The translations under genes and the position numbers were made by a program. A stretch of 20,000 bases of DNA from an uncultured virus (IMG/VR IMGVR_UViG_3300031788_000008) (lineage: Duplodnaviria > Heunggongvirae > Uroviricota > Caudoviricetes): IMG/VR virus record IMGVR_UViG_3300031788_000008, positions 55,793 through 75,792 of that record; one strand, 5' to 3'. Positions 5,658 to 19,134 of the stretch are shown here, in pieces; within the stretch, counting starts at the first letter, position 1; the number at the start of each line of letters is the position of its first letter. The notes under the pieces are model-generated. The model saw only the letters and a list, made by a program, of their open reading frames with translations, was not told where the DNA came from and did not search any database.

Positions 5658-5882
5658 ATGAATTTTCAAGAGCGTGTTATAACAGAAAAAAGAGAACTAG
5701 ACAATAAACTGGATAAATTGCAAGCCTTTATAAATGAAGGAACGGTTTATGCACAGCTTCCCAAAGAGGAACGTTCAAGATTAGCGAGACAGGCAACTGT
5801 CATGATTGAGTACTCTCAAATTCTCGCTGATCGTATCGCAAAATTTCAAGGGTATGATCCAACTAAAATTTGGTCTTTGTAA
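5658..5882 (+). CDS. Small coiled-coil phage protein (crAss001_48-like)
   Basis: FQERVITEKRELDNKLDKLQAFI...RLARQATVMIEYSQILADRI pattern; RBS GGGAGA. Confidence 0.75.
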   Translation: MNFQERVITEKRELDNKLDKLQAFINEGTVYAQLPKEERSRLARQATVMIEYSQILADRIAKFQGYDPTKIWSL

Positions 5883-5889
5883 ATAAATC

Positions 5890-5918
5890 TTGACAAATAT
5901 TCCAACTACCAGTATTAT
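5890..5918 (+). promoter_or_regulatory. Sigma70-type promoter of the Tyr/Leu tRNA cluster
   Basis: TTGACA-17 bp-TATTAT. Confidence 0.85.
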
Positions 5919-5933
5919 ACTCATAAGGCATTT

Positions 5934-6017
5934 ATGAACAACATTACCCTATCACCGTCATTGTCGTTGCTGGCTTATTACCTTAGCTTGCCACGCGGCG
6001 GTGTGTTCAACGGGTAA
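5934..6017 (+). CDS. Putative attenuator leader peptide MNNITLSPSLSLLAYYLSLPRGGVFNG (Leu/Ser/Tyr-rich)
   Basis: 27 codons directly after the promoter; Leu CTA,TTG,TTG,CTG,CTT,TTG; Tyr TAT,TAC; Ser TCA,TCA,TCG,AGC. Confidence 0.8.
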   Translation: MNNITLSPSLSLLAYYLSLPRGGVFNG

Positions 6018-6041
6018 ATTTTAACCCGATTCGAATTAACC

Positions 6042-6072
6042 GCCGCCCCGAAATGGGCGGCTTTTGTTTTTT
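6042..6072 (+). terminator. Attenuator terminator, mutually exclusive with antiterminator 5995-6046
   Basis: GCCGCCC-CGAAAT-GGGCGGC-TTTTGTTTTTT; leader GCGGCGGT (5995-6002) is complementary to ACCGCCGC (6039-6046). Confidence 0.85.
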
Positions 6073-6077
6073 GTGGT

Positions 6078-6107
6078 AAGCCCAGACTTCTAGTCTGGGT
6101 AGATGAC
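6078..6107. repeat. Isolated IS200/IS605-type terminal hairpin
   Basis: AAGCCCAGACTTCTAGTCTGGGTAGATGAC; similar to the hairpin at 17020-17046. Confidence 0.55.
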
Positions 6108-6111
6108 CTTT

Positions 6112-6204
6112 GCCTAGAACGCAGATACGGTTGGCTGCATCCGGCTGTAACCCGGAATTTGGCTAGTCCAGACAATGGGAGTTCGAATCTCTCTCTAGGC
6201 ACCA
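6112..6204 (+). tRNA. tRNA-Tyr(GTA)
   Basis: GCCTAGA/TCTAGGC+ACCA; TCCGG-CTGTAAC-CCGGA; long variable arm; TTCGAAT T loop; A instead of U at position 8. Confidence 0.9.
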
Positions 6205-6223
6205 AAATTTTATAGGGGTGATT

Positions 6224-6499
6224 ATGGAAAAATTCATGTCCAGATCGGAACAGAAACGAGTAGCTTCAATGAAGGGAGAGCCCGCGCCTTCATTTGAGAT
6301 TAGAGTTGAATACGATGATGGCGAATCGGTTTGGCATGATGGTAAAAGTCCTTTTTGTACACGCAGGGATCGCCCAATGGGAATGTACGCTATGATGCCG
6401 GATGACACGCAGCGGCCTTTAAATATAGGGTACATGCGTGTGAGTGAAATGCAAGGATTGGAAAAACTCCTCAATGAAATTTTAAATTTTAAGAAATAG
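6224..6499 (+). CDS. Hypothetical protein inside the tRNA cluster
   Basis: RBS AGGGGTG then ATG; exactly fills the gap between two tRNAs. Confidence 0.7.
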   Translation: MEKFMSRSEQKRVASMKGEPAPSFEIRVEYDDGESVWHDGKSPFCTRRDRPMGMYAMMPDDTQRPLNIGYMRVSEMQGLEKLLNEILNFKK

Positions 6500-6503
6500 T
6501 TTT

Positions 6504-6588
6504 GCGGCTGTGGTGGAATGGGCAGACACACCATCTTGAGGGGGTGGCGTCGAAAGATGTGAGAGTTCAAATCTCTCCAGCCGCACCA
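6504..6588 (+). tRNA. tRNA-Leu(GAG)
   Basis: GCGGCTG/CAGCCGC+ACCA; CCATC-TTGAGGG-GGTGG; long variable arm. Confidence 0.95.
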
Positions 6589-6612
6589 AGTTTAGAGTCA
6601 AACCGTAGTTGT

Positions 6613-6711
6613 GAGGTTGCAACGGGGAGCTAACACAATGCTGCTCGATAAGAAGCGAAAGCTTCCGCTCGCGGGCGTAAGGTCGGGGTGCAGGCGTTGA
6701 TCCGTTGCCTC
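6613..6711 (+). ncRNA. Unidentified structured RNA between tRNA-Leu genes
   Basis: Closing stem GCAACGG/CCGTTGC; internal GAAGC-GAAA-GCTTC hairpin; GC-rich island in AT-rich DNA. Confidence 0.45.
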
Positions 6712-6723
6712 TAAAATAAGTTT

Positions 6724-6809
6724 GCCGGGTTGGTGGAATTGGGAGACACTCTGGACTTAGGATCCAGCGGTTAACAGCCATGCAGGTTCGACCCCTGTAC
6801 TCGGCACCA
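6724..6809 (+). tRNA. tRNA-Leu(TAG)
   Basis: GCCGGGT/ACTCGGC+ACCA; CTGGA-CTTAGGA-TCCAG. Confidence 0.95.
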
Positions 6810-6816
6810 AAAATTT

Positions 6817-6907
6817 GCGCGGGTGATGAAACTAGGGAGACATGCAGCGTTCAGACCGCTGTGCCCTTAAACAAGGCGTGCAGGTTCAATTCCTGTTCCG
6901 CGCACCA
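6817..6907 (+). tRNA. tRNA-Leu(CAG)
   Basis: GCGCGGG/TCCGCGC+ACCA; CAGCG-TTCAGAC-CGCTG. Confidence 0.95.
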
Positions 6908-6920
6908 ATTTTGTAGATAG

Positions 6921-7011
6921 GCCAGAATGGCGGAATTAGGGAGACGCGCACGGCTCAAGCCCGTGTGAGCCTAAAAAACTCGTGGGGGTTCGATTCCCCC
7001 TTCTGGCACCA
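6921..7011 (+). tRNA. tRNA-Leu(CAA)
   Basis: GCCAGAA/TTCTGGC+ACCA; CACGG-CTCAAGC-CCGTG. Confidence 0.95.
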
Positions 7012-7200
7012 AAAATAAGTATTACATTTTATGGGCATATTTATTTGGCAGTGTATCAACTGTAAAAAGTTAGTAAAAACTTCCATGGATTTTTCTATCA
7101 ATGATCGTCCAATATGTTTTGAATGATGATGAAGTAGCAGAATTTTTTGCTAGACTTTCAAAAATCAATTTTAAAAAACAATAACTATTTAAGTATCTTA

Positions 7201-7478
7201 AAATATCCATTTTCAGTGTTTCCGATGTATAATTGGGTATGGATATCACACTAAAAATTAAAAGGATCAGTGTCTTAACTGGTCACGGTACTGATAGGAT
7301 TTACCTTTATTTTGATCTGCCTACAACATTTCCTGACTGGCCGCTTGAGGAATGTTCCGCAGTCATCGAAGCGACTAAAGGTTACGGCGTTGCCTGGGTA
7401 AAAGAAAATTTCCACCTAGAACCAGATGTAGTTTCGTCCTGTTTCTGAAATATCCATTTTCAGTGTTTCCGATGTATA
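7201..7478 (+). repeat. 31-bp perfect direct repeat (7201-7231 and 7448-7478), promoter-like
   Basis: AAATATCCATTTTCAGTGTTTCCGATGTATA, continuing as TATAAT or TATACT just before a start codon. Confidence 0.85.
7239..7448 (+). CDS. Hypothetical protein
   Basis: ORF lies exactly between the two 31-bp repeats. Confidence 0.7.
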   Translation: MDITLKIKRISVLTGHGTDRIYLYFDLPTTFPDWPLEECSAVIEATKGYGVAWVKENFHLEPDVVSSCF

Positions 7479-7488
7479 CTAGGGATGT

Positions 7489-7764
7489 ATGAGTAAACCA
7501 CCAATAAGCGAGAAACCTCCTTGGGTTCAAGGGGCTAAAAACACCAAGAAACGAAAGAAGAAAGACAACGATGCGATTCTAAATCCTGTATACGACGCAA
7601 AACTTGTGGAGAAATTGTGCGGAAACGCACGAAGGATAGTTCTTCAAGAAGGCAACGGGATGCTAACAAATGGTGTTCCAACGGAGTTATATTGGCACAT
7701 CAATGGGTGCTCTGCTTGTGAAGAACTTCGCTCCAAGGCTAAACCACCAGAGATACCGTACTGA
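7489..7764 (+). CDS. Hypothetical protein (HxxxCxxC)
   Basis: ORF following the second repeat. Confidence 0.65.
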   Translation: MSKPPISEKPPWVQGAKNTKKRKKKDNDAILNPVYDAKLVEKLCGNARRIVLQEGNGMLTNGVPTELYWHINGCSACEELRSKAKPPEIPY

Positions 7765-7804
7765 GGTGTAACGCATCATGGCCGGGACTGTGATCAGGAG
7801 GAAT

Positions 7805-8092
7805 ATGAACAAGCCGATTATTCTCATTGTAGCACTGAGATACGAAATTGATGGTGATTTAGAAGATGCGAAACGTATGTTGTCTAGAGCTTATGCTCCG
7901 CGTGAGGGAAGAGTTGAAAGTGCAAGTAGCCACAAAGCTACAGCAACATGCATATCAATGCAGGCTGAAATTGAGGAGATGCAAGAAGATATGTGTGAAG
8001 TTAGGAATGGTGTTGGATATGCCTACCTACAGGTCCCTTACCCAGCGGGGGCAGCTGGCGTGCAGCAACAAAAGCAGAGGAAGAAGAAATAG
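7805..8092 (+). CDS. Hypothetical protein
   Basis: RBS AGGAGG before ATG 7805. Confidence 0.65.
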   Translation: MNKPIILIVALRYEIDGDLEDAKRMLSRAYAPREGRVESASSHKATATCISMQAEIEEMQEDMCEVRNGVGYAYLQVPYPAGAAGVQQQKQRKKK

Positions 8093-8135
8093 ACAAAGAA
8101 AAGATCATCAAAGCGATCAAAGAGATCGATGATGA

Positions 8136-8378
8136 ATGTCGGAGGCGGTAATGAAAAGAGAACTCACTGAGAAGTTTTGCCAATTCGTCAACTACCCTGA
8201 AAGCGAGGATGCCTGCGGAGAGCCAGCACGCTGCAAGCATGAGGATGTGTGGTTGTGTGCCGCGCACTACGACATCGTCATGGATTCACCAGACGATTAC
8301 GATGCGATCACTGTGGATAATACGAAGTCATCGTTCGTATTCACTTTGCCGGAAAAAGAACCCAATGCCAAAACCTAA
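8136..8378 (+). CDS. Small Cys/His protein (C...CGEPA...LCAAHYD)
   Basis: Shares CxxHYD with the 1434-2019 paralogs and CGEPA with the 3002 gene. Confidence 0.7.
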   Translation: MSEAVMKRELTEKFCQFVNYPESEDACGEPARCKHEDVWLCAAHYDIVMDSPDDYDAITVDNTKSSFVFTLPEKEPNAKT

Positions 8379-8673
8379 TTTATTCAAAGAAGACGCCATT
8401 TTGGAATCCCAGATTATTGATACTTTAGAAGCTGGTTTGAAGCGGTGGCGACCAGATTTATCTTACCCCGAGTCTTACAGTGATATGCAAGCCTGTGTCC
8501 GGGGTCTGCTAATGGTCTTTGATGTTAAGCGCCTACCTCTGCCAAAGCCCCTGAGAATTGAATGTCATGTTTGTGATGGTTTAGGATATATGATAACGAA
8601 AGCAGAAAATAGCTATCGTGAATCAACGTCTTGTAAAGAATGCAAAGGACGGGGGCACATTCCCAGTGAATAA
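8365..8673 (+). CDS. Hypothetical protein with DnaJ-like zinc-finger repeats
   Basis: CHVCDGLG ... CKECKGRG (two CxxCxGxG). Confidence 0.7.
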   Translation: MPKPNLFKEDAILESQIIDTLEAGLKRWRPDLSYPESYSDMQACVRGLLMVFDVKRLPLPKPLRIECHVCDGLGYMITKAENSYRESTSCKECKGRGHIPSE

Positions 8674-8836
8674 ACGAGTGGATATTCGAGCTATTCTACG
8701 CAATCCGGCGCAACGCCGGGAGTTGATGATTCGCTGCATTATCGCCACACAAGCCAGAGAAGATGTCCAAACCACTTATAAACAGGCCGCCGTAGCTTAT
8801 GATAAAGTCAGTGACTATCGTAAATCAAATTCCTAA
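8666..8836 (+). CDS. Hypothetical protein
   Basis: GTG start overlapping the upstream stop; fills the gap. Confidence 0.55.
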   Translation: MNKRVDIRAILRNPAQRRELMIRCIIATQAREDVQTTYKQAAVAYDKVSDYRKSNS

Positions 8837-8883
8837 TCATTCCACCTCTTGCCATAAACAAATTCTTGAGATAGTATCAAGTT

Positions 8884-13473: not shown

Positions 13474-13602
13474 ACGGTAGCCCAAAGGAGCCGATAAACA
13501 GGCAGCAAGGTGAGGTTCGGTAGAACCGACAAAATGATGCGAGAAGCGGACAAGCACTTCATATGACGGCTGTAGTATCATAGGTACAAGGAATAACAGG
13601 TG

Positions 13603-14154
13603 ATGAAAATAGAGGATTCTGTGGAAACTGTGAATACATCAGCTAAAATTGATATCTTTAAATATGAATGGGAATTTTTGTCTAATTTTTATCCCTGTGA
13701 GATTGTTTGGGAAGGAATTACTTACGCTTCCACAGAGCACGCATACCAAGCGGCTAAGACACTGGATATAGAGAAACGCCGGATGTTTGGATTAGAAGAC
13801 AACCCTCGTTTAACAGCCAAAAAAGCAAAAGATATGGGAGCAAATATCAAGAAGAACGGAGAGCTGCGCTCCGATTGGCTCAAAGTCAATATCGGCATCA
13901 TGCGGGAATTGTTGGTATTGAAATTTGAGAAAGAAGAGCTGAAACAAAAATTATTGTCCACAGGCACCGCTTATTTGGAAGAAGGGAACTGGTGGGAAGA
14001 CAATTTTTGGGGTGTTTGTTATGGGGGCACAGAAAAAGGGTTCCATGGAATCAAATGCGGCAAATGGCCCCATGTCCCTTCGGGTGAAAATCATTTAGGT
14101 TTATTGCTTATGGCTATTAGGGCTACGTTTATTCCTAGAATACAGGTGGCATAA
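13603..14154 (+). CDS. NADAR / YbiA-family protein
   Basis: FLSNFYP, YASTEHAYQAAK, LKF...LKQKLLSTG..YLEEGNWWEDNFWG, GENHLGLLLMAIR. Confidence 0.92.
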   Translation: MKIEDSVETVNTSAKIDIFKYEWEFLSNFYPCEIVWEGITYASTEHAYQAAKTLDIEKRRMFGLEDNPRLTAKKAKDMGANIKKNGELRSDWLKVNIGIMRELLVLKFEKEELKQKLLSTGTAYLEEGNWWEDNFWGVCYGGTEKGFHGIKCGKWPHVPSGENHLGLLLMAIRATFIPRIQVA

Positions 14155-14155
14155 A

Positions 14156-14332
14156 ATGACAAAAAACGAAATACTATACAACTTAAAAAACGGACGAAGG
14201 TTGCGTTGCGATAGGAAAGATGAACCGTTATTGCCTTGGTTGCTAGAACATCCAAACATCCAGAATAAATTTGTGCAAGTTGATGACCAGTCTAGCTATA
14301 TTGAATTTATTTGGGAGAAAAATAATCCTTGA
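14156..14332 (+). CDS. Small hypothetical protein (58 aa)
   Basis: ATG one base after the NADAR stop; MTKNEILYNL...WEKNNP*. Confidence 0.6.
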   Translation: MTKNEILYNLKNGRRLRCDRKDEPLLPWLLEHPNIQNKFVQVDDQSSYIEFIWEKNNP

Positions 14333-14357
14333 CAATTTTTCAACTACCCAGTATTAT
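14329..14357 (+). promoter_or_regulatory. Sigma70-type promoter of the Pro/Met tRNA cluster
   Basis: TTGACA-17 bp-TATTAT; shares CAACTACC(C)AGTATTATA with the 5890 promoter. Confidence 0.85.
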
Positions 14358-14457: not shown

Positions 14458-14526
14458 ATGACCAAAATGCGACCGATGCCGATGTTTCCACCAAGCCCTA
14501 TGGGGCGCGGGGTCGCTGGACTTTAG
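14458..14526 (+). CDS. Putative attenuator leader peptide MTKMRPMPMFPPSPMGRGVAGL (Met/Pro-rich)
   Basis: 22 codons; 5 ATG; Pro CCG,CCG,CCA,CCA,CCT. Confidence 0.8.
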   Translation: MTKMRPMPMFPPSPMGRGVAGL

Positions 14527-14529
14527 TCC

Positions 14530-14558
14530 AACCCCGTGCTAGCGGGGTTCTGTTGTTG
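14530..14558 (+). terminator. Attenuator terminator, mutually exclusive with antiterminator 14505-14539
   Basis: AACCCCGT-GCTA-GCGGGGTT-CTGTTGTTG (imperfect U tract); leader GCGCGGGGT (14505-14513) pairs with ACCCCGTGC (14531-14539). Confidence 0.7.
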
Positions 14559-14601: not shown

Positions 14602-14676
14602 CAGGGTATAGTGTTAATGGTAGCACCCTAGTTTCGGGAACTAGTAGTCTCAGATCATTCCTGAGTACCCTGACCA
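14602..14676 (+). tRNA. tRNA-Pro(CGG), non-canonical T loop
   Basis: CAGGGTA/TACCCTG+ACCA; CTAGT-TTCGGGA-ACTAG; T loop ATCATTC. Confidence 0.88.
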
Positions 14677-14681
14677 GTTTA

Positions 14682-14717
14682 CGGTGTAGCTCAGCCCGGT
14701 TTAGAGCAAGCACACCG
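14682..14717 (+). pseudogene. Internally deleted tRNA-Pro-like remnant
   Basis: CGGTGT-AGCTCAGCCCGGTTTAGAGC-AAGC-ACACCG: a D arm closed by a short stem; no anticodon or T arm. Confidence 0.55.
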
Positions 14718-14775
14718 ACTTTCGTTACTTTTTGTACAGCTATCAAGATTTTTTGTAAAAGGAGTTACTTTTAAG

Positions 14776-14850
14776 CAGGGCGTAGATCAGAGGAAGATCG
14801 CAAGTCTGGGGGACTTGAGGCCGGAATATCATAATTTCCCGCCCTGACCA
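14776..14850 (+). tRNA. tRNA-Pro(GGG), non-canonical T loop
   Basis: CAGGGCG/CGCCCTG+ACCA; CAAGT-CTGGGGG-ACTTG; T loop ATCATAA. Confidence 0.85.
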
Positions 14851-14872
14851 CAGTTTGAAAATTTAAATTTAA

Positions 14873-14958
14873 CTAGGTGTCGGGTAGTTTGGTTTAGCCC
14901 ACATGCCTTGGGCGCATGTCTCGAAAGAGAATCGCAGGTTCAAATCCTGCCACCTAGA
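14873..14958 (+). tRNA. tRNA-Pro(TGG) with long variable arm, no encoded CCA
   Basis: CTAGGTG/CACCTAG+A; CATGC-CTTGGGC-GCATG; variable hairpin TCTC-GAAA-GAGA; GCAGG-TTCAAAT-CCTGC. Confidence 0.88.
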
Positions 14959-15024
14959 CATTGGCGACTGTCAGCCGTTAGTAAGTCTGACTTAAAGGCG
15001 CATAGAGCGCAGTCGCACTTTTTT

Positions 15025-15503: not shown

Positions 15504-16164
15504 ATGATTATCGAAATTAGAGCGGCTGAAGGCGGACAGGACGCAAAATTACTGGTCGAAGATCAAATGACCATCTACGCGAGGTTGGCGATACGGAGGG
15601 GTCTTTGAGTTTGATGTTACCGAACAACGCCCAGGTATAGCTATCCTGCGCATTACAGGGGCTACAGCGCCTCAAGTCTTCGCTAACGAGGCAGGAGGTC
15701 ACCGTTTTCAGAGAATTCCTCCCACGGAGCGTAGCGGTAGAGTTCAAACCAGTACAATTACTGTGGCTGTTTTTGATGAACCGGAAGTTGCTGCTTTTGC
15801 CGTATCCCCAAATGATTTGGCATGGGAGACAATGCGCAGCGGGGGTAAGGGCGGTCAAAACGCCAATAAACTGGAAACAAAAATACGCTTAAAACATAAA
15901 CCTACAGGATTAGTCGTGGTTTGCGAATCAGAACGTAGCCAAAAAAGAAATAAAGACACGGCCTTAGCTGTCCTTACAGCACGTTTGTACGCTGCTGATA
16001 AGGATAAAAAAGCTGAAGCTGCTACTACGGATAGGCGACAACAAATAGGAACGGGACAACGAGGAGATAAACGCCGTACAATACGAGAAAAAGATGGAAA
16101 AGTCGTAGACCATATCACCGGTCAAAAATGGCGTTATTCTGATTATGTAAAAGGCATTTGGTAA
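15504..16164 (+). CDS. Class I peptide chain release factor, RF1-type PxT motif, no domain 1, expressed through a +1 frameshift at 15603-15608
   Basis: RBS GGAGGA; MIIEIRAAEGGQDAKL...RRGL(CTT TGA); +1 frame EFDVTEQRPG...NEAGGHRFQRIPPTERSGRVQTSTITVAV...GKGGQNANK...ERSQKRNK...KRRTIR; about 219 aa. Confidence 0.92.
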
Positions 16165-16167
16165 AAA

Positions 16168-16779
16168 ATGGAACAATATCCACATATCGAAGGCAGTACA
16201 AAGGCTCCTATAGGAGAACCGTGCATCGCTTTTTATAAGTACGATGGTAGTAATCTGCGCTTCGAATGGAGCCCTAAAAAAGGCTGGCATAAGTTTGGCA
16301 CCAGAAAAGAACTTTTTGACGCTCGCCATCCTTTGTGGTCTCAAGCCCTTCCCTTGTTTTTAGAGTTTGGAGATGAGATTGTAAAACGAGTGAAAGCATC
16401 GGATTGGCGATTGAAAGGTATCCAACGAATTACTGTTTTTTGTGAATTCTTTGGACCTAGCAGTTTTGCCGGAATTCATGATGAAAAAGAGCCTAAAGAA
16501 TTGCGTTTGATCGATGTATACCTTTTCAAAAAAGGTATGATGCCAGCGAAGCAATTTGTAGAAATTTTTGGAGATATGCCCCAGGCAGCACAGGTAATTT
16601 ATCAGGGAAATTTGACTAAGCAATTCATAGATGATGTGCGCTTTGGGGCTTATTCTGTGAATGAGGGCGTGGTCGCTAAGGGCGCTGATTTTCGGGTAAA
16701 AATAAAAACTGCTGCTTACTTCAAAAAATTGAATGAACGGCTCCCAGAGTTAGCGAATGCCTTTGATTGTGAGTATTAG
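16168..16779 (+). CDS. ATP-dependent RNA ligase-like nucleotidyltransferase (Rnl2-type)
   Basis: Motif I YKYDGSN, III FCEFFG, IIIa LIDV, IV EGVVAK, V VKIK; no OB domain. Confidence 0.82.
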   Translation: MEQYPHIEGSTKAPIGEPCIAFYKYDGSNLRFEWSPKKGWHKFGTRKELFDARHPLWSQALPLFLEFGDEIVKRVKASDWRLKGIQRITVFCEFFGPSSFAGIHDEKEPKELRLIDVYLFKKGMMPAKQFVEIFGDMPQAAQVIYQGNLTKQFIDDVRFGAYSVNEGVVAKGADFRVKIKTAAYFKKLNERLPELANAFDCEY

Positions 16780-17046: not shown

Positions 17047-17156
17047 AGCAGTATTTTTTCAATTGGTGTATTCACCGTTTGCAGATTTGTACCGCTGGGG
17101 TTAATAAGGACGGTTGGTATGGAAAGTATAGGGACTTGGTAAAATTTTTTATTTAC

Positions 17157-17235
17157 GCCAGTGTAGCATAGTCCGGCCTAATGCGCTTCGCTCATAACGA
17201 AGAGATCGGTGGTTCAAATCCACCCGCTGGTACCA
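17157..17235 (+). tRNA. tRNA with CAT anticodon (elongator Met; Ile2 not excluded)
   Basis: GCCAGTG/CGCTGGT+ACCA; CTTCG-CTCATAA-CGAAG; GGTGG-TTCAAAT-CCACC. Confidence 0.92.
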
Positions 17236-17255
17236 AAATTTTAATGGAAAGTATA

Positions 17256-18425
17256 GGGAACTATATAGTTAACTCCCCCGGCTAGAACATAACAATGCTG
17301 AGAACTTTTCAATGTCGGTTGTATCCAAACGCGACGCAGAGACACGCGCTGGAGTTCGTCTTGCGTGACAACGCGGAGACGTACAACGCGGCTCTTGCAG
17401 AGCGCCGAGATGCATGGAAGTTGGAGCGCAAGGCGATCACCTATCGAATGCAACAGGACGAACTAACAGAACTACGCCGTGATGAACAATTTGCAAGAGT
17501 CGCCTGCGACATTCAACGTGATCCCTTGAGAAGGGTTGACCGAGCATTCCAAGCGTTCTTTCGGCGTTGTAAAGCAGGCCAGAAGCCAGGCTTTCCTCGT
17601 TTTCGCTCTCATCTGCGCTACGACTCTTTTGGATTCAGTCTCCCAGTCGTGAATAGTGAACGTCTGAGGATTCCGAATGTGGGGCAGATCAAACTGCGCG
17701 GAGGCCGCAGCATTGCAGGTAAGGCGAAGTGTTGCACGGTCAAGCGAGACGGCAACCGTTGGACGGCTTCAGTCGTGTGCGACATTGGTCCGGCACCAGG
17801 GAAGCGTATGGTAACAAATGCTGTCGGAATAGATATGGGCCTGACGACGCTCGCCACGCTGTCGGACGGGACGGAGATTGAGAACCCACGCTGGACCCGA
17901 CAGCACGAAGACCTGATTGCAGCCGCGAATCGCCTACTGGCACGGAAGCATAAACGTTCGAAGAACCGCATCCGGGCGCGGGAAGCACTGCATCGCGCTC
18001 ACCAGCGGGCCGCGAATGCCCGTCGCAACTATCTGCATCACGTTTCCAAATGGCTTGTGGGTAATTACGACCTGATCGCCCACGAAGCCTTAAACATTAA
18101 AGGCATGGCGCAAGGACATTTCGCCAAGTCGATTATGGATGCCGCATGGAGCATTCTGCTGTCGCAAGTACGCTACAAGGCTGAGAGTGCCGGAGTGTAC
18201 GCGATAGCGGTGAATCCACGCGGCACGTCACAAATGTGTTCGGGTTGCGGTCGAAACGTTCCGAAGAAACTGGCGCAGCGGGTGCATAGCTGTCCGCACT
18301 GCGGTCTAGTTCTGGGGCGTGACCACAATGCCGGACGGAACATTTTAGCGTTGGGGATCAACGCTGCGGGCGTAAGCCTTCAAAATCTACACACGACTCG
18401 GGTTAGGGAGTTATGTATAAGTCCC
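17256..18425 (+). mobile_element. tnpB-only element with terminal inverted repeats and 8-bp target site duplication
   Basis: Left GGGAACTATATAGTTAACTCCC; right (reverse complement) GGGACTTATACATAACTCCC; AAAGTATA at 17248-17255 and 18426-18433; GC-rich relative to flanks. Confidence 0.85.
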
Positions 18426-18434
18426 AAAGTATAG
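17295..18434 (+). CDS. tnpB: RNA-guided endonuclease TnpB
   Basis: RLYPN N-terminus, GFPRFR, RuvC I VGIDMG, RuvC II IAHEAL, zinc finger CSGCG...CPHCG, RuvC III RDHNAGRNI; D-E-D intact. Confidence 0.96.
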   Translation: MLRTFQCRLYPNATQRHALEFVLRDNAETYNAALAERRDAWKLERKAITYRMQQDELTELRRDEQFARVACDIQRDPLRRVDRAFQAFFRRCKAGQKPGFPRFRSHLRYDSFGFSLPVVNSERLRIPNVGQIKLRGGRSIAGKAKCCTVKRDGNRWTASVVCDIGPAPGKRMVTNAVGIDMGLTTLATLSDGTEIENPRWTRQHEDLIAAANRLLARKHKRSKNRIRAREALHRAHQRAANARRNYLHHVSKWLVGNYDLIAHEALNIKGMAQGHFAKSIMDAAWSILLSQVRYKAESAGVYAIAVNPRGTSQMCSGCGRNVPKKLAQRVHSCPHCGLVLGRDHNAGRNILALGINAAGVSLQNLHTTRVRELCISPKV

Positions 18435-18515: not shown

Positions 18516-18806
18516 ATGAAACACCCTTGTAATCGGGCGGAACGCCGTGCTGTTCGTGACGGTAAAATCGACCGCCGTAAGTATATTGCTACATGCATTT
18601 GGCGTGATTACGATATAGTTCCCCATGAAGGAACCCCTCAAAATTGGTATCAACCCAAAGAATGGGGGCGTTTTGCTAAATTTAACCTGAATTGTGGCTG
18701 TATGATGTGTCATTCAGAGAAGTATTTTAAACATAAACGCAAAAGACGCGAAGCCCTCAAACAATCAATCAGTTATAACATAAGAGAATGGGATGAAATA
18801 TCTTGA
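18516..18806 (+). CDS. Small basic hypothetical protein (CGCxxC)
   Basis: RBS AGGAG before ATG 18516. Confidence 0.7.
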   Translation: MKHPCNRAERRAVRDGKIDRRKYIATCIWRDYDIVPHEGTPQNWYQPKEWGRFAKFNLNCGCMMCHSEKYFKHKRKRREALKQSISYNIREWDEIS

Positions 18807-18833
18807 CAATTTTTTAATTATAGGTATTATAAT
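18803..18833 (+). promoter_or_regulatory. Sigma70-type promoter
   Basis: TTGACA-16-TATTAT(AAT), directly before structured RNAs and a tRNA. Confidence 0.75.
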
Positions 18834-19055: not shown

Positions 19056-19134
19056 TGCGGGGATTAAGCTACGGTGCGCTTGGATGTCTCATAAGCATTC
19101 CTCTTAGGTGGTTCAACTCCACCCTCCGCTACCA
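19056..19134 (+). tRNA. tRNA-Met(CAT), initiator-like acceptor end
   Basis: TGCGGGG/CTCCGCT+ACCA (1:72 mismatch); GATGT-CTCATAA-GCATT; GGTGG-TTCAACT-CCACC. Confidence 0.82.

Follow-up and report, generated by a model that had tools for sequence, protein, structure and literature searches.

What phages gain from having tRNA genes of their own, and how these are put to use, remains an open question, the current answers being compensation for codon usage and escape from host defences that cleave tRNAs. A locus within a 20,000-nucleotide (nt) stretch of an uncultured Caudoviricetes virus (IMG/VR record IMGVR_UViG_3300031788_000008, positions 55,793 to 75,792; hereafter the window, or W) raises this question in a specific form: does the short open reading frame (ORF), rich in Leu and Tyr codons, that stands with a promoter and a terminator before one tRNA-Tyr and four tRNA-Leu genes decide whether these genes are transcribed? 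The answer we reached is that phage tRNA genes are probably controlled by ribosome-mediated attenuators of the trp/his type, which would let transcription into these genes when charged tRNAs of the cognate kind are in short supply. The Leu/Tyr unit of the window is, by sequence comparison, one member of a family, related jumbo phages grouping most of their tRNA genes according to amino acid, with a separate codon-matched leader before each group. The window is the end of a 75.8-kb viral contig (24% complete according to CheckV), all ten tRNA genes of which it contains; we speak of a jumbo phage lineage because its relatives include a complete record of 455.7 kb with 64 tRNA hits (G001).

The unit lies on the + strand and begins with a sigma-70-type promoter (TTGACA-17 nt-TATTAT, 5890..5918), which lies where a preliminary description of the locus had placed it, matches the consensus at 11 of 12 positions and is among the three best-scoring promoter-like sites of the window. 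The leader ORF (ATG at 5934, TAA at 6015-6017) comprises 27 codons and reads MNNITLSPSLSLLAYYLSLPRGGVFNG. It was recovered base for base as first described, with the tandem Tyr codons TAT TAC, and contains six Leu codons (CTA, TTG, TTG, CTG, CTT and TTG), the Leu/Tyr control block extending over codons 6-19. The ATG lies 15 nt past the -10 element, with AAGG 5 nt before it. Within and behind the ORF are the segments of a possible RNA switch. Region 1 (CACCGUC, 5953..5959) pairs in the free RNA with region 2 (GCGGCGGUG, 5995..6003), which is also the 5' strand of a putative antiterminator and has 6039-6046 as its alternative partner. The segments of the latter pairing (GCGGCGGT at 5995-6002 and ACCGCCGC at 6039-6046) had been proposed beforehand and are present as proposed, enclosing CGGGT at 6011-6015 and ACCCG at 6024-6028; a small hairpin around the stop codon (6011..6029), obtained by folding, is thus nested in the antiterminator. 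Region 3/4 (6039..6072) is an intrinsic terminator whose 5' arm is common to the antiterminator: a stem of seven G-C pairs (GCCGCCC/GGGCGGC, 6042-6061; free energy, dG, about -14.5 to -14.8) is followed by the T-tract TTTTGTTTTTT (6062-6072), and 6042-6072 is the top-scoring terminator hit in the window.

The genes behind the terminator are likewise those named in the preliminary description. The first gated gene is tRNA-Tyr(GTA) (6112..6204; Rfam, 44.5 bits), separated from the terminator by an extra hairpin (6081..6099) that the alignments identify as an insertion specific to the window and absent in relatives. It is followed, within the operon, by the gene for a conserved 91-amino-acid (aa) protein without a Pfam family (6224..6499), which has homologues in four relatives in addition to its own cluster and sits between tRNA-Tyr and tRNA-Leu there too. 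The tRNA search and Rfam then agree on tRNA-Leu(GAG) (6504-6588), tRNA-Leu(TAG) (6724-6809), tRNA-Leu(CAG) (6817-6907) and tRNA-Leu(CAA) (6921-7011), all on the + strand. A non-coding spacer of 135 nt (6589-6723), in which no tRNA match was found at E up to 1, separates the first two of these tRNA-Leu genes; the relatives have an extra tRNA-Leu at about this place, and the spacer may be a decayed tRNA.

We propose that these parts would work together as follows. Transcription would start at the promoter at 5890-5918 and a ribosome would translate the 27-codon leader. With Leu- and Tyr-tRNAs plentiful, it would reach the stop codon and cover region 2 (5995-6003), allowing the terminator (6042-6061 with its U-tract) to form and transcription to stop before tRNA-Tyr. 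With charged Leu- or Tyr-tRNA scarce, it would stall in the Leu/Tyr block (codons about 8-17) and cover region 1, leaving region 2 free to pair with the terminator 5' arm at 6039-6046, so that RNA polymerase would continue into tRNA-Tyr, the small conserved protein and the four tRNA-Leu genes. The new tRNAs would relieve the stall, closing a negative feedback loop. Candidate triggers are depletion of host tRNAs by defence nucleases or by phage shut-off, or a codon-usage mismatch.

Folding in silico reproduced both states. The free leader RNA of the window (z-score -2.7) formed the 1:2 hairpin (5953-5959/5997-6003; found in both the minimum-free-energy and the centroid structure), the stop-codon hairpin and the terminator. 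When the ribosome footprint and all sequence 5' to it were masked, and the probability of the terminator was calculated for each A-site codon, this probability lay between 0.04 and 0.30 for codons 8-17 and between 0.86 and 0.99 for codon 18 and all later ones up to the stop; the antiterminator thus prevails with the ribosome on codons 8-17 and the terminator from codon 18 onwards, in line with the attenuation scheme. A less restrictive mask gave the same picture for the window, the relatives' loci L007 and L008 showed the same pattern, and, with units of all types taken together, a clear switch was seen in 8 of 14 (masked folding, longer terminator stems). In all 14 units the final 48 nt of the ORF could form an antiterminator duplex with the 5' arm of the terminator, with a dG (-14.5 to -24.5) similar to or stronger than that of the terminator stem, and in 10 of them this duplex surpassed dinucleotide shuffles (p < 0.05); for the window its dG was -18.0, the shuffles averaging -12.5 (p = 0.028). 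In the eight aligned Leu/Tyr sequences the terminator was always kept (98.2% of cells paired), and pairing extended to 83.0% of the cells of the antiterminator and 90.9% of those of the 1:2 hairpin, compared with 17-73% in slid controls. In L008, a C of the shared 5' arm has become U, with compensating changes from G to A in both of its partners, region 2 and the 3' arm. Units with unusual terminators (the Val/Gly/Ala unit of G002, the basic unit of G001, and L008) pair best with their own ORF.

In the window leader, Leu and Tyr make up 8 of the 26 non-start codons as against a background of 11.8% (binomial P = 0.008). Taken alone, this codon bias is suggestive and no more, and significance comes from the relatives and paralogues. 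Relatives were sought by several routes. A metagenome scan, with an alignment of homologues of the 91-aa operon protein as query, gave 12 loci, 8 of them with Leu tRNA clusters, mostly Tyr plus Leu; a scan with the pattern of a second, Pro-rich leader of the window, described below, gave five viral records, which could be searched for tRNAs over their whole length. The relatives used here are loci L007, L008, L009, L029 and L035 (L007, L029 and L035 being identical copies of one unit) and records G001 to G004. The phage GenBank collection yielded only two short tRNA-level matches, and we therefore conclude that it holds no relatives. Among the viral contigs, the 91-aa protein found one weak locus without tRNAs, as did an AAA ATPase, and a consensus pattern of the Leu/Tyr leader had no match. 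A match to a tRNA-Tyr 3' pattern was dismissed as part of an unrelated phage tRNA array. The RNA libraries in which the window occurs carry the labels peat or permafrost.

The same cassette stands before tRNA-Tyr in all relatives whose sequence extends far enough, and the leaders are preceded, as judged by eye, by an element of the TTGACA...TGGTATTA type. Seven different Leu/Tyr leaders, of 25-28 codons, are complete, that of the window and those of L007 (MTHVTLSPSLRLYSLYLSYRRGGVFKG), L008 (MTRVTLSPLSRLYSSYLSLRRSGVFNG), L009 (MARVSLSLALLYTLLSGDGSGVFSG), G001 (MNRVFLASLRLYSYLSGGFGERVRWRGW), G003 (MTHVTLASDLLYTLLSGVGGRVLNG) and G004 (MTRLTLSSLRLYSYLSGFSGGVFEGLN); conservation of the ORF, on which the attenuation proposal depends, was found in all seven, the start codon being kept in the alignment and the frame being preserved across insertions and deletions. 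At homologous positions Leu and Tyr replace one another (between W and L007, for example, CTG by TAT, TAT by TTG and TTG by TAT), and the total of the two remains constant at 6-8. Such swaps with a constant sum would be expected under selection for codon content and not for the peptide.

A test of the codon match came from the complete relative G001, in which the tRNA genes are grouped by amino acid and six clusters carry a cassette of promoter, leader and hairpin. The leaders and the genes downstream of them are as follows: MNRVFLASLRLYSYLSGGFGERVRWRGW before two Tyr and five Leu tRNAs; MTLMRPTPTFRPCTPTVRGGIGHTL before four to five Pro; MNFNFTNAGWQTGAVGAVAAVCEAEGIVAAGAADSVPSEGWDD before Val, Gly, Ala, Cys, Asp ... 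Glu; MNMTSQTRTTTSTQRITTATTGGFTFEDGWDG before two Ile, three Thr and two Gln; MVRIHALSSSSSSSRSGSGGVGVCL before four Ser and Leu(TAA); and MTFMTAKSSRKHQRRNNRWFGTGLFSEGWGA, the basic leader, before (Trp), Gln, two His, three Arg, two Asn and two Lys. When the cognate-codon fraction was tabulated for every pair of leader and cluster, the diagonal held the column maximum in 6/6 cases, and the true assignment of leaders to clusters was the single best of the 720 permutations, both raw and column-normalised. The attenuation reading had predicted that other tRNA clusters would carry leaders enriched in their own amino acids, and it gains support from this outcome. About 50 of the 64 G001 tRNA hits lie behind leader units (by proximity, with gaps under 1 kb), and orthologous Val/Gly/Ala and Ile/Thr/Gln leaders occur in G002 and G003.

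Where clusters share an amino acid, the leader codons follow the isoacceptors: (i) TTA occurs in the G001 Ser leader, the cluster of which includes tRNA-Leu(TAA); (ii) the Ile/Thr/Gln leader uses CAA and lies before tRNA-Gln(TTG), and the basic leader uses CAG and lies before tRNA-Gln(CTG); (iii) the Arg codons of the basic leader are CGN only, Arg(CCG) and Arg(ACG) being in its cluster and Arg(CCT) elsewhere; and (iv) the Ser run consists of TCG, TCC, TCA, AGT and AGC, all four Ser isoacceptors being in the cluster. The enrichment of Ser in the window leader (4/26) had raised the idea of a sensor of class II tRNAs, which was dropped in view of the Ser-run leader that the G001 Ser tRNAs have to themselves.

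The window itself contains a second unit, on the same strand. Its promoter (TTGACA-17-TATTAT, 14329..14357) is 85% identical, over 39 nt, to that of the Leu/Tyr unit and its surroundings, and its leader ORF (14458..14526; MTKMRPMPMFPPSPMGRGVAGL) comprises 22 codons, with five Pro and four internal Met. There follow region 2 (GCGCGGGGU, 14505-14513), a stop-codon hairpin, found in the fold of this unit as in that of the Leu/Tyr unit, and a terminator-like hairpin (14530-14549), the whole element occupying 14505..14549; tRNA-Pro(CGG) (14602-14676) and tRNA-Pro(TGG) (14873-14959) lie downstream, spanning 14602..14959, and two tRNA-Met genes farther on. Pro accounts for 5 of 21 codons (P = 0.007; matched by 1 of 253 random ORFs) and Met for 4 of 21 (P = 0.0005). 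That a Pro-rich second unit stands before tRNA-Pro agrees with an independent prediction of the attenuation reading. The Pro-type leader is conserved in five further records; its region 2 is, by reading, complementary to the hairpin 5' arm (14531-14539), and the hairpin covaries in relatives (TGC:GCA to CGC:GCG, also by reading). Folding of the Pro type consisted of one fold of the window unit with the RNA unmasked. In G003 (L018) and G004 (L020 3078-3105) the 3' arm of the Pro hairpin is formed by the first six bases of tRNA-Pro(TGG) and no U-tract follows. The Pro-type variant may thus pair with the acceptor strand of the first tRNA and gate how this tRNA folds or is processed; it may act in this way, or through Rho, and not by intrinsic termination.

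The spacing of the units bears on whether the tRNAs could be made from elsewhere. We applied a detector that took each perfect-stem terminator with a tRNA within 900 nt downstream, listed the ORFs ending no more than 80 nt upstream of the stem and ignored ORF composition; it returned one ORF per terminator, except for L009 (two ORFs) and for three terminators without any. The stop codon lies 22-26 nt from the terminator in 12 of 14 units. Of the 14 units for which the detector found a leader ORF, 10 have their first tRNA 9-24 nt behind the terminator stem (8 of 11 once the identical L007, L029 and L035 copies are merged), and the remaining distances are 51 and 55 nt in the two units of the window, 373 nt in the Ser unit and 105 nt in the basic unit. 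In the last of these an Rfam tRNA hit missed by ARAGORN (G001:283747-283822), the anticodon loop of which by our own reading is CCA (Trp), starts about 25 nt past the stem. The preliminary description had singled out a promoter of their own behind 6072 as the arrangement that would free the tRNAs from the leader; a scan of the + strand of the window from 5919 to 8848 found no further promoter-like site. Together with the gaps of 9-24 nt in relatives, this indicates that the tRNAs are made only by read-through of the terminator.

Several observations weigh against attenuation as proposed, in which leader translation, stalling, regulated read-through and the physiological trigger are inferred. 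The leaders have weak Shine-Dalgarno sites (AAGG or GAGA) and a 5' untranslated region (UTR) of only about 9 nt. Equilibrium folding gave no clear switch in 6 of the 14 units (L009, the Leu/Tyr units of G001 and G003, and the Val/Gly/Ala, Ser and basic units of G001). When ORFs were paired with their own and with foreign terminators, no more than 5 of 8 columns had their best value on the diagonal, a GCCGCC arm being common to many units. The helices are nearly invariant in the Leu/Tyr type, and their two-sided pair changes were reached by 50/500, 94/500 and 56/500 shuffles. As many as 22 of 253 random short ORFs of the contig attain the Leu+Tyr fraction of the window leader. The earlier claim that this leader uses the four encoded Leu isoacceptors and avoids TTA stands as far as the absence of TTA in the window leader goes; as evidence it does not, TTA being the commonest Leu codon (29.8%), so that its absence from six Leu codons has P = 0.12, and being present in 2 of the 7 leaders, those of G003 (codon 23) and G004 (codon 4), the clusters of which lack tRNA-Leu(TAA). 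In the Pro type, a weak T-rich tail follows the hairpin only in the window, with no U-tract in relatives, and the relatives' leaders are also rich in Thr with no tRNA-Thr nearby; the Thr positions are Met in the window, which has tRNA-Met downstream. Finally, four metatranscriptome runs from peat yielded contigs that extend from 5607 to 6240-6364 and so bridge promoter, leader, terminator and tRNA-Tyr, but these begin upstream of the promoter, and RNA and DNA are not distinguishable in them. Contigs farther downstream have an approximately ten-fold lower depth, which, being one figure per contig, giving neither ends nor strand and possibly including DNA, is neutral on attenuation. In one contig, from run X1, position 6301 is joined to 6978 and position 7091 to 7188, the tRNA-Leu block being missing; these junctions could be a strain variant or an assembly artefact.

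Other explanations have to be weighed against the same evidence. The switch geometry would work alike for any stall, and the leader tails are alike across types (G-rich, with W/F), which points to a shared structural scaffold; the leaders could then be general sensors of translation status, without codon specificity, that open the tRNA operons whenever overall translation slows, the codon bias being secondary. We regard this as unlikely, since the leader-to-cluster match is the best of 720 with each cluster's amino acids peaking in their own leader, the isoacceptor split of Leu and Gln follows the clusters at the level of codons, and the Leu/Tyr codon swaps leave the total constant. In such a sensor the leader would report whether any ribosome follows the polymerase at all, for example after host shut-off or under a ribosome-targeting defence. 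A small-protein gene with its own terminator, from which constitutive leaky read-through would supply the tRNAs and in which the alternative pairings would be non-regulatory, strikes us as very unlikely: a functional peptide would be expected neither to mirror the downstream tRNAs in six paralogues nor to tolerate Leu-to-Tyr exchanges that need two to three base changes, and the 22-26 nt between stop codon and terminator would be left unexplained, as would the antiterminator complementarity in 14/14 units. Such a gene would nevertheless fit the fair conservation of the peptide within the Leu/Tyr type (TLSPSL...YLS...GGVF) and the statistical weakness of the switch covariation.

We give hardly any credence to an untranslated structured 5' leader or small RNA with an incidental reading frame, serving RNase P or RNase E as a processing platform, or Rho or a protein as a binding site. 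The weak Shine-Dalgarno sites and the very short 5' UTR would suit it, as would the Pro hairpins of G003 and G004, which run into the start of tRNA-Pro without a U-tract and resemble a control of folding or processing. Yet the frame is open in 14/14 units, the other frames of the unit spans mostly holding stops, the start codon is conserved, the enrichment in cognate codons would have no meaning, and a search of 5850-7100 with Rfam at E up to 1 returned the tRNAs and, apart from them, three chance-level matches to unrelated families. Ribosome-mediated attenuation remains the reading that we prefer.

Leader-peptide attenuators are known from the enterobacterial amino-acid operons (trpL, hisL, leuL, thrL, ilvL and pheL) and from pheST (pheM). 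The phage units share with them a promoter-proximal short ORF rich in regulatory codons, the pairings 1:2, 2:3 and 3:4, in which antiterminator and intrinsic terminator exclude each other, and a stop codon at which a terminating ribosome would lie over region 2; the multivalent phage leaders (Leu+Tyr, Ile+Thr+Gln) resemble those of thr and ilv. Unlike the enterobacterial attenuators, they are encoded by a phage, with at least six paralogous units in one genome, and gate tRNA genes instead of genes for amino-acid biosynthesis, transport or synthetases. Since the molecule sensed and the product made would belong to the same class, feedback would act directly on the tRNA pool and not on amino-acid synthesis. 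T-box riboswitches, by which Gram-positive bacteria sense tRNA and control aminoacyl-tRNA synthetase and amino-acid genes, likewise respond to the state of one particular tRNA by forming either a terminator or an antiterminator; they bind the uncharged tRNA directly, with no need of translation, whereas the phage unit has an ORF and neither a T-box nor a specifier structure. At the gathering score, Rfam found only tRNAs over the window, and no leader, T-box or small RNA family. In the portions of text returned by full-text literature searches, attenuation of tRNA genes is not described, in phages or elsewhere; a passage of one such paper concerns supercoiling of the promoter of a tRNA operon and not attenuation (PMC3082878). 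The logic and the anatomy are those of classical attenuators, and the difference lies in the class of genes regulated, the tRNA genes.

The surroundings of the units hold further features. By Pfam, the neighbours in the window include a 5'-3' exonuclease, two AAA ATPases, a NADAR protein, an RF-1-domain protein and a TnpB-like protein, and a crAss001_48-related protein lies directly upstream of the Leu/Tyr unit. The gene for the RF-1-domain protein (GGQ-type, ArfB-like; Pfam E = 9e-30) adjoins that for a 203-aa protein, which has no Pfam hit and is RNA-ligase-like by eye only; both lie within 15763-16779, between the tRNA-Pro and tRNA-Met genes, and together with the NADAR gene (13600-14154) they look like a translation-rescue or RNA-repair neighbourhood. 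A tRNA-Met (17157-17235) has on either side of it a direct repeat of about 16 nt (ATGGAAAGTATAGGGA; span 17120-17262), and the TnpB-like gene (17295-18434; OrfB_IS605 plus a Cas12f1-like TNB domain) comes directly after; the repeat and this gene may be signs of a mobile insertion. A third promoter, of the type seen in the Leu/Tyr and Pro units (18803-18830, 11/12), precedes about 220 nt of highly structured RNA (dG -79, z = -3.8) with no obvious leader ORF and no Rfam match at the gathering score, and then tRNA-Met (19057-19130).

In G001 a full-length bacterial class A RNase P RNA (RF00010, 167 bits, E = 3e-52; L024 4129-4503, G001:C1:92128-92502) sits in the Val/Gly/Ala tRNA cluster, directly before three tRNA-Gly genes. 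G001 (L023 10353-10803) and G002 (L031 2886-3044) also contain tRNAs with a CTA anticodon, called 'Pyl' by ARAGORN and resembling amber suppressors, together with calls of four-base anticodons (gcaa, ctag).

As to what these units mean for the phages, we lean, if only slightly, towards the view that the jumbo phages possess a homeostat of tRNA supply resolved by amino acid, with a private leader for each operon, a codon match at the level of isoacceptors and transcription of only those tRNAs that are lacking; the shortage sensed could arise from host anticodon nucleases, phage shut-off or codon mismatch. If this is true, the expression of phage tRNAs would be driven by demand and specific to amino-acid families, under a control principle that the passages retrieved in the literature searches do not describe for the tRNA genes of any organism, and the leaders would be compact, orthogonal sensors of individual charged-tRNA pools.

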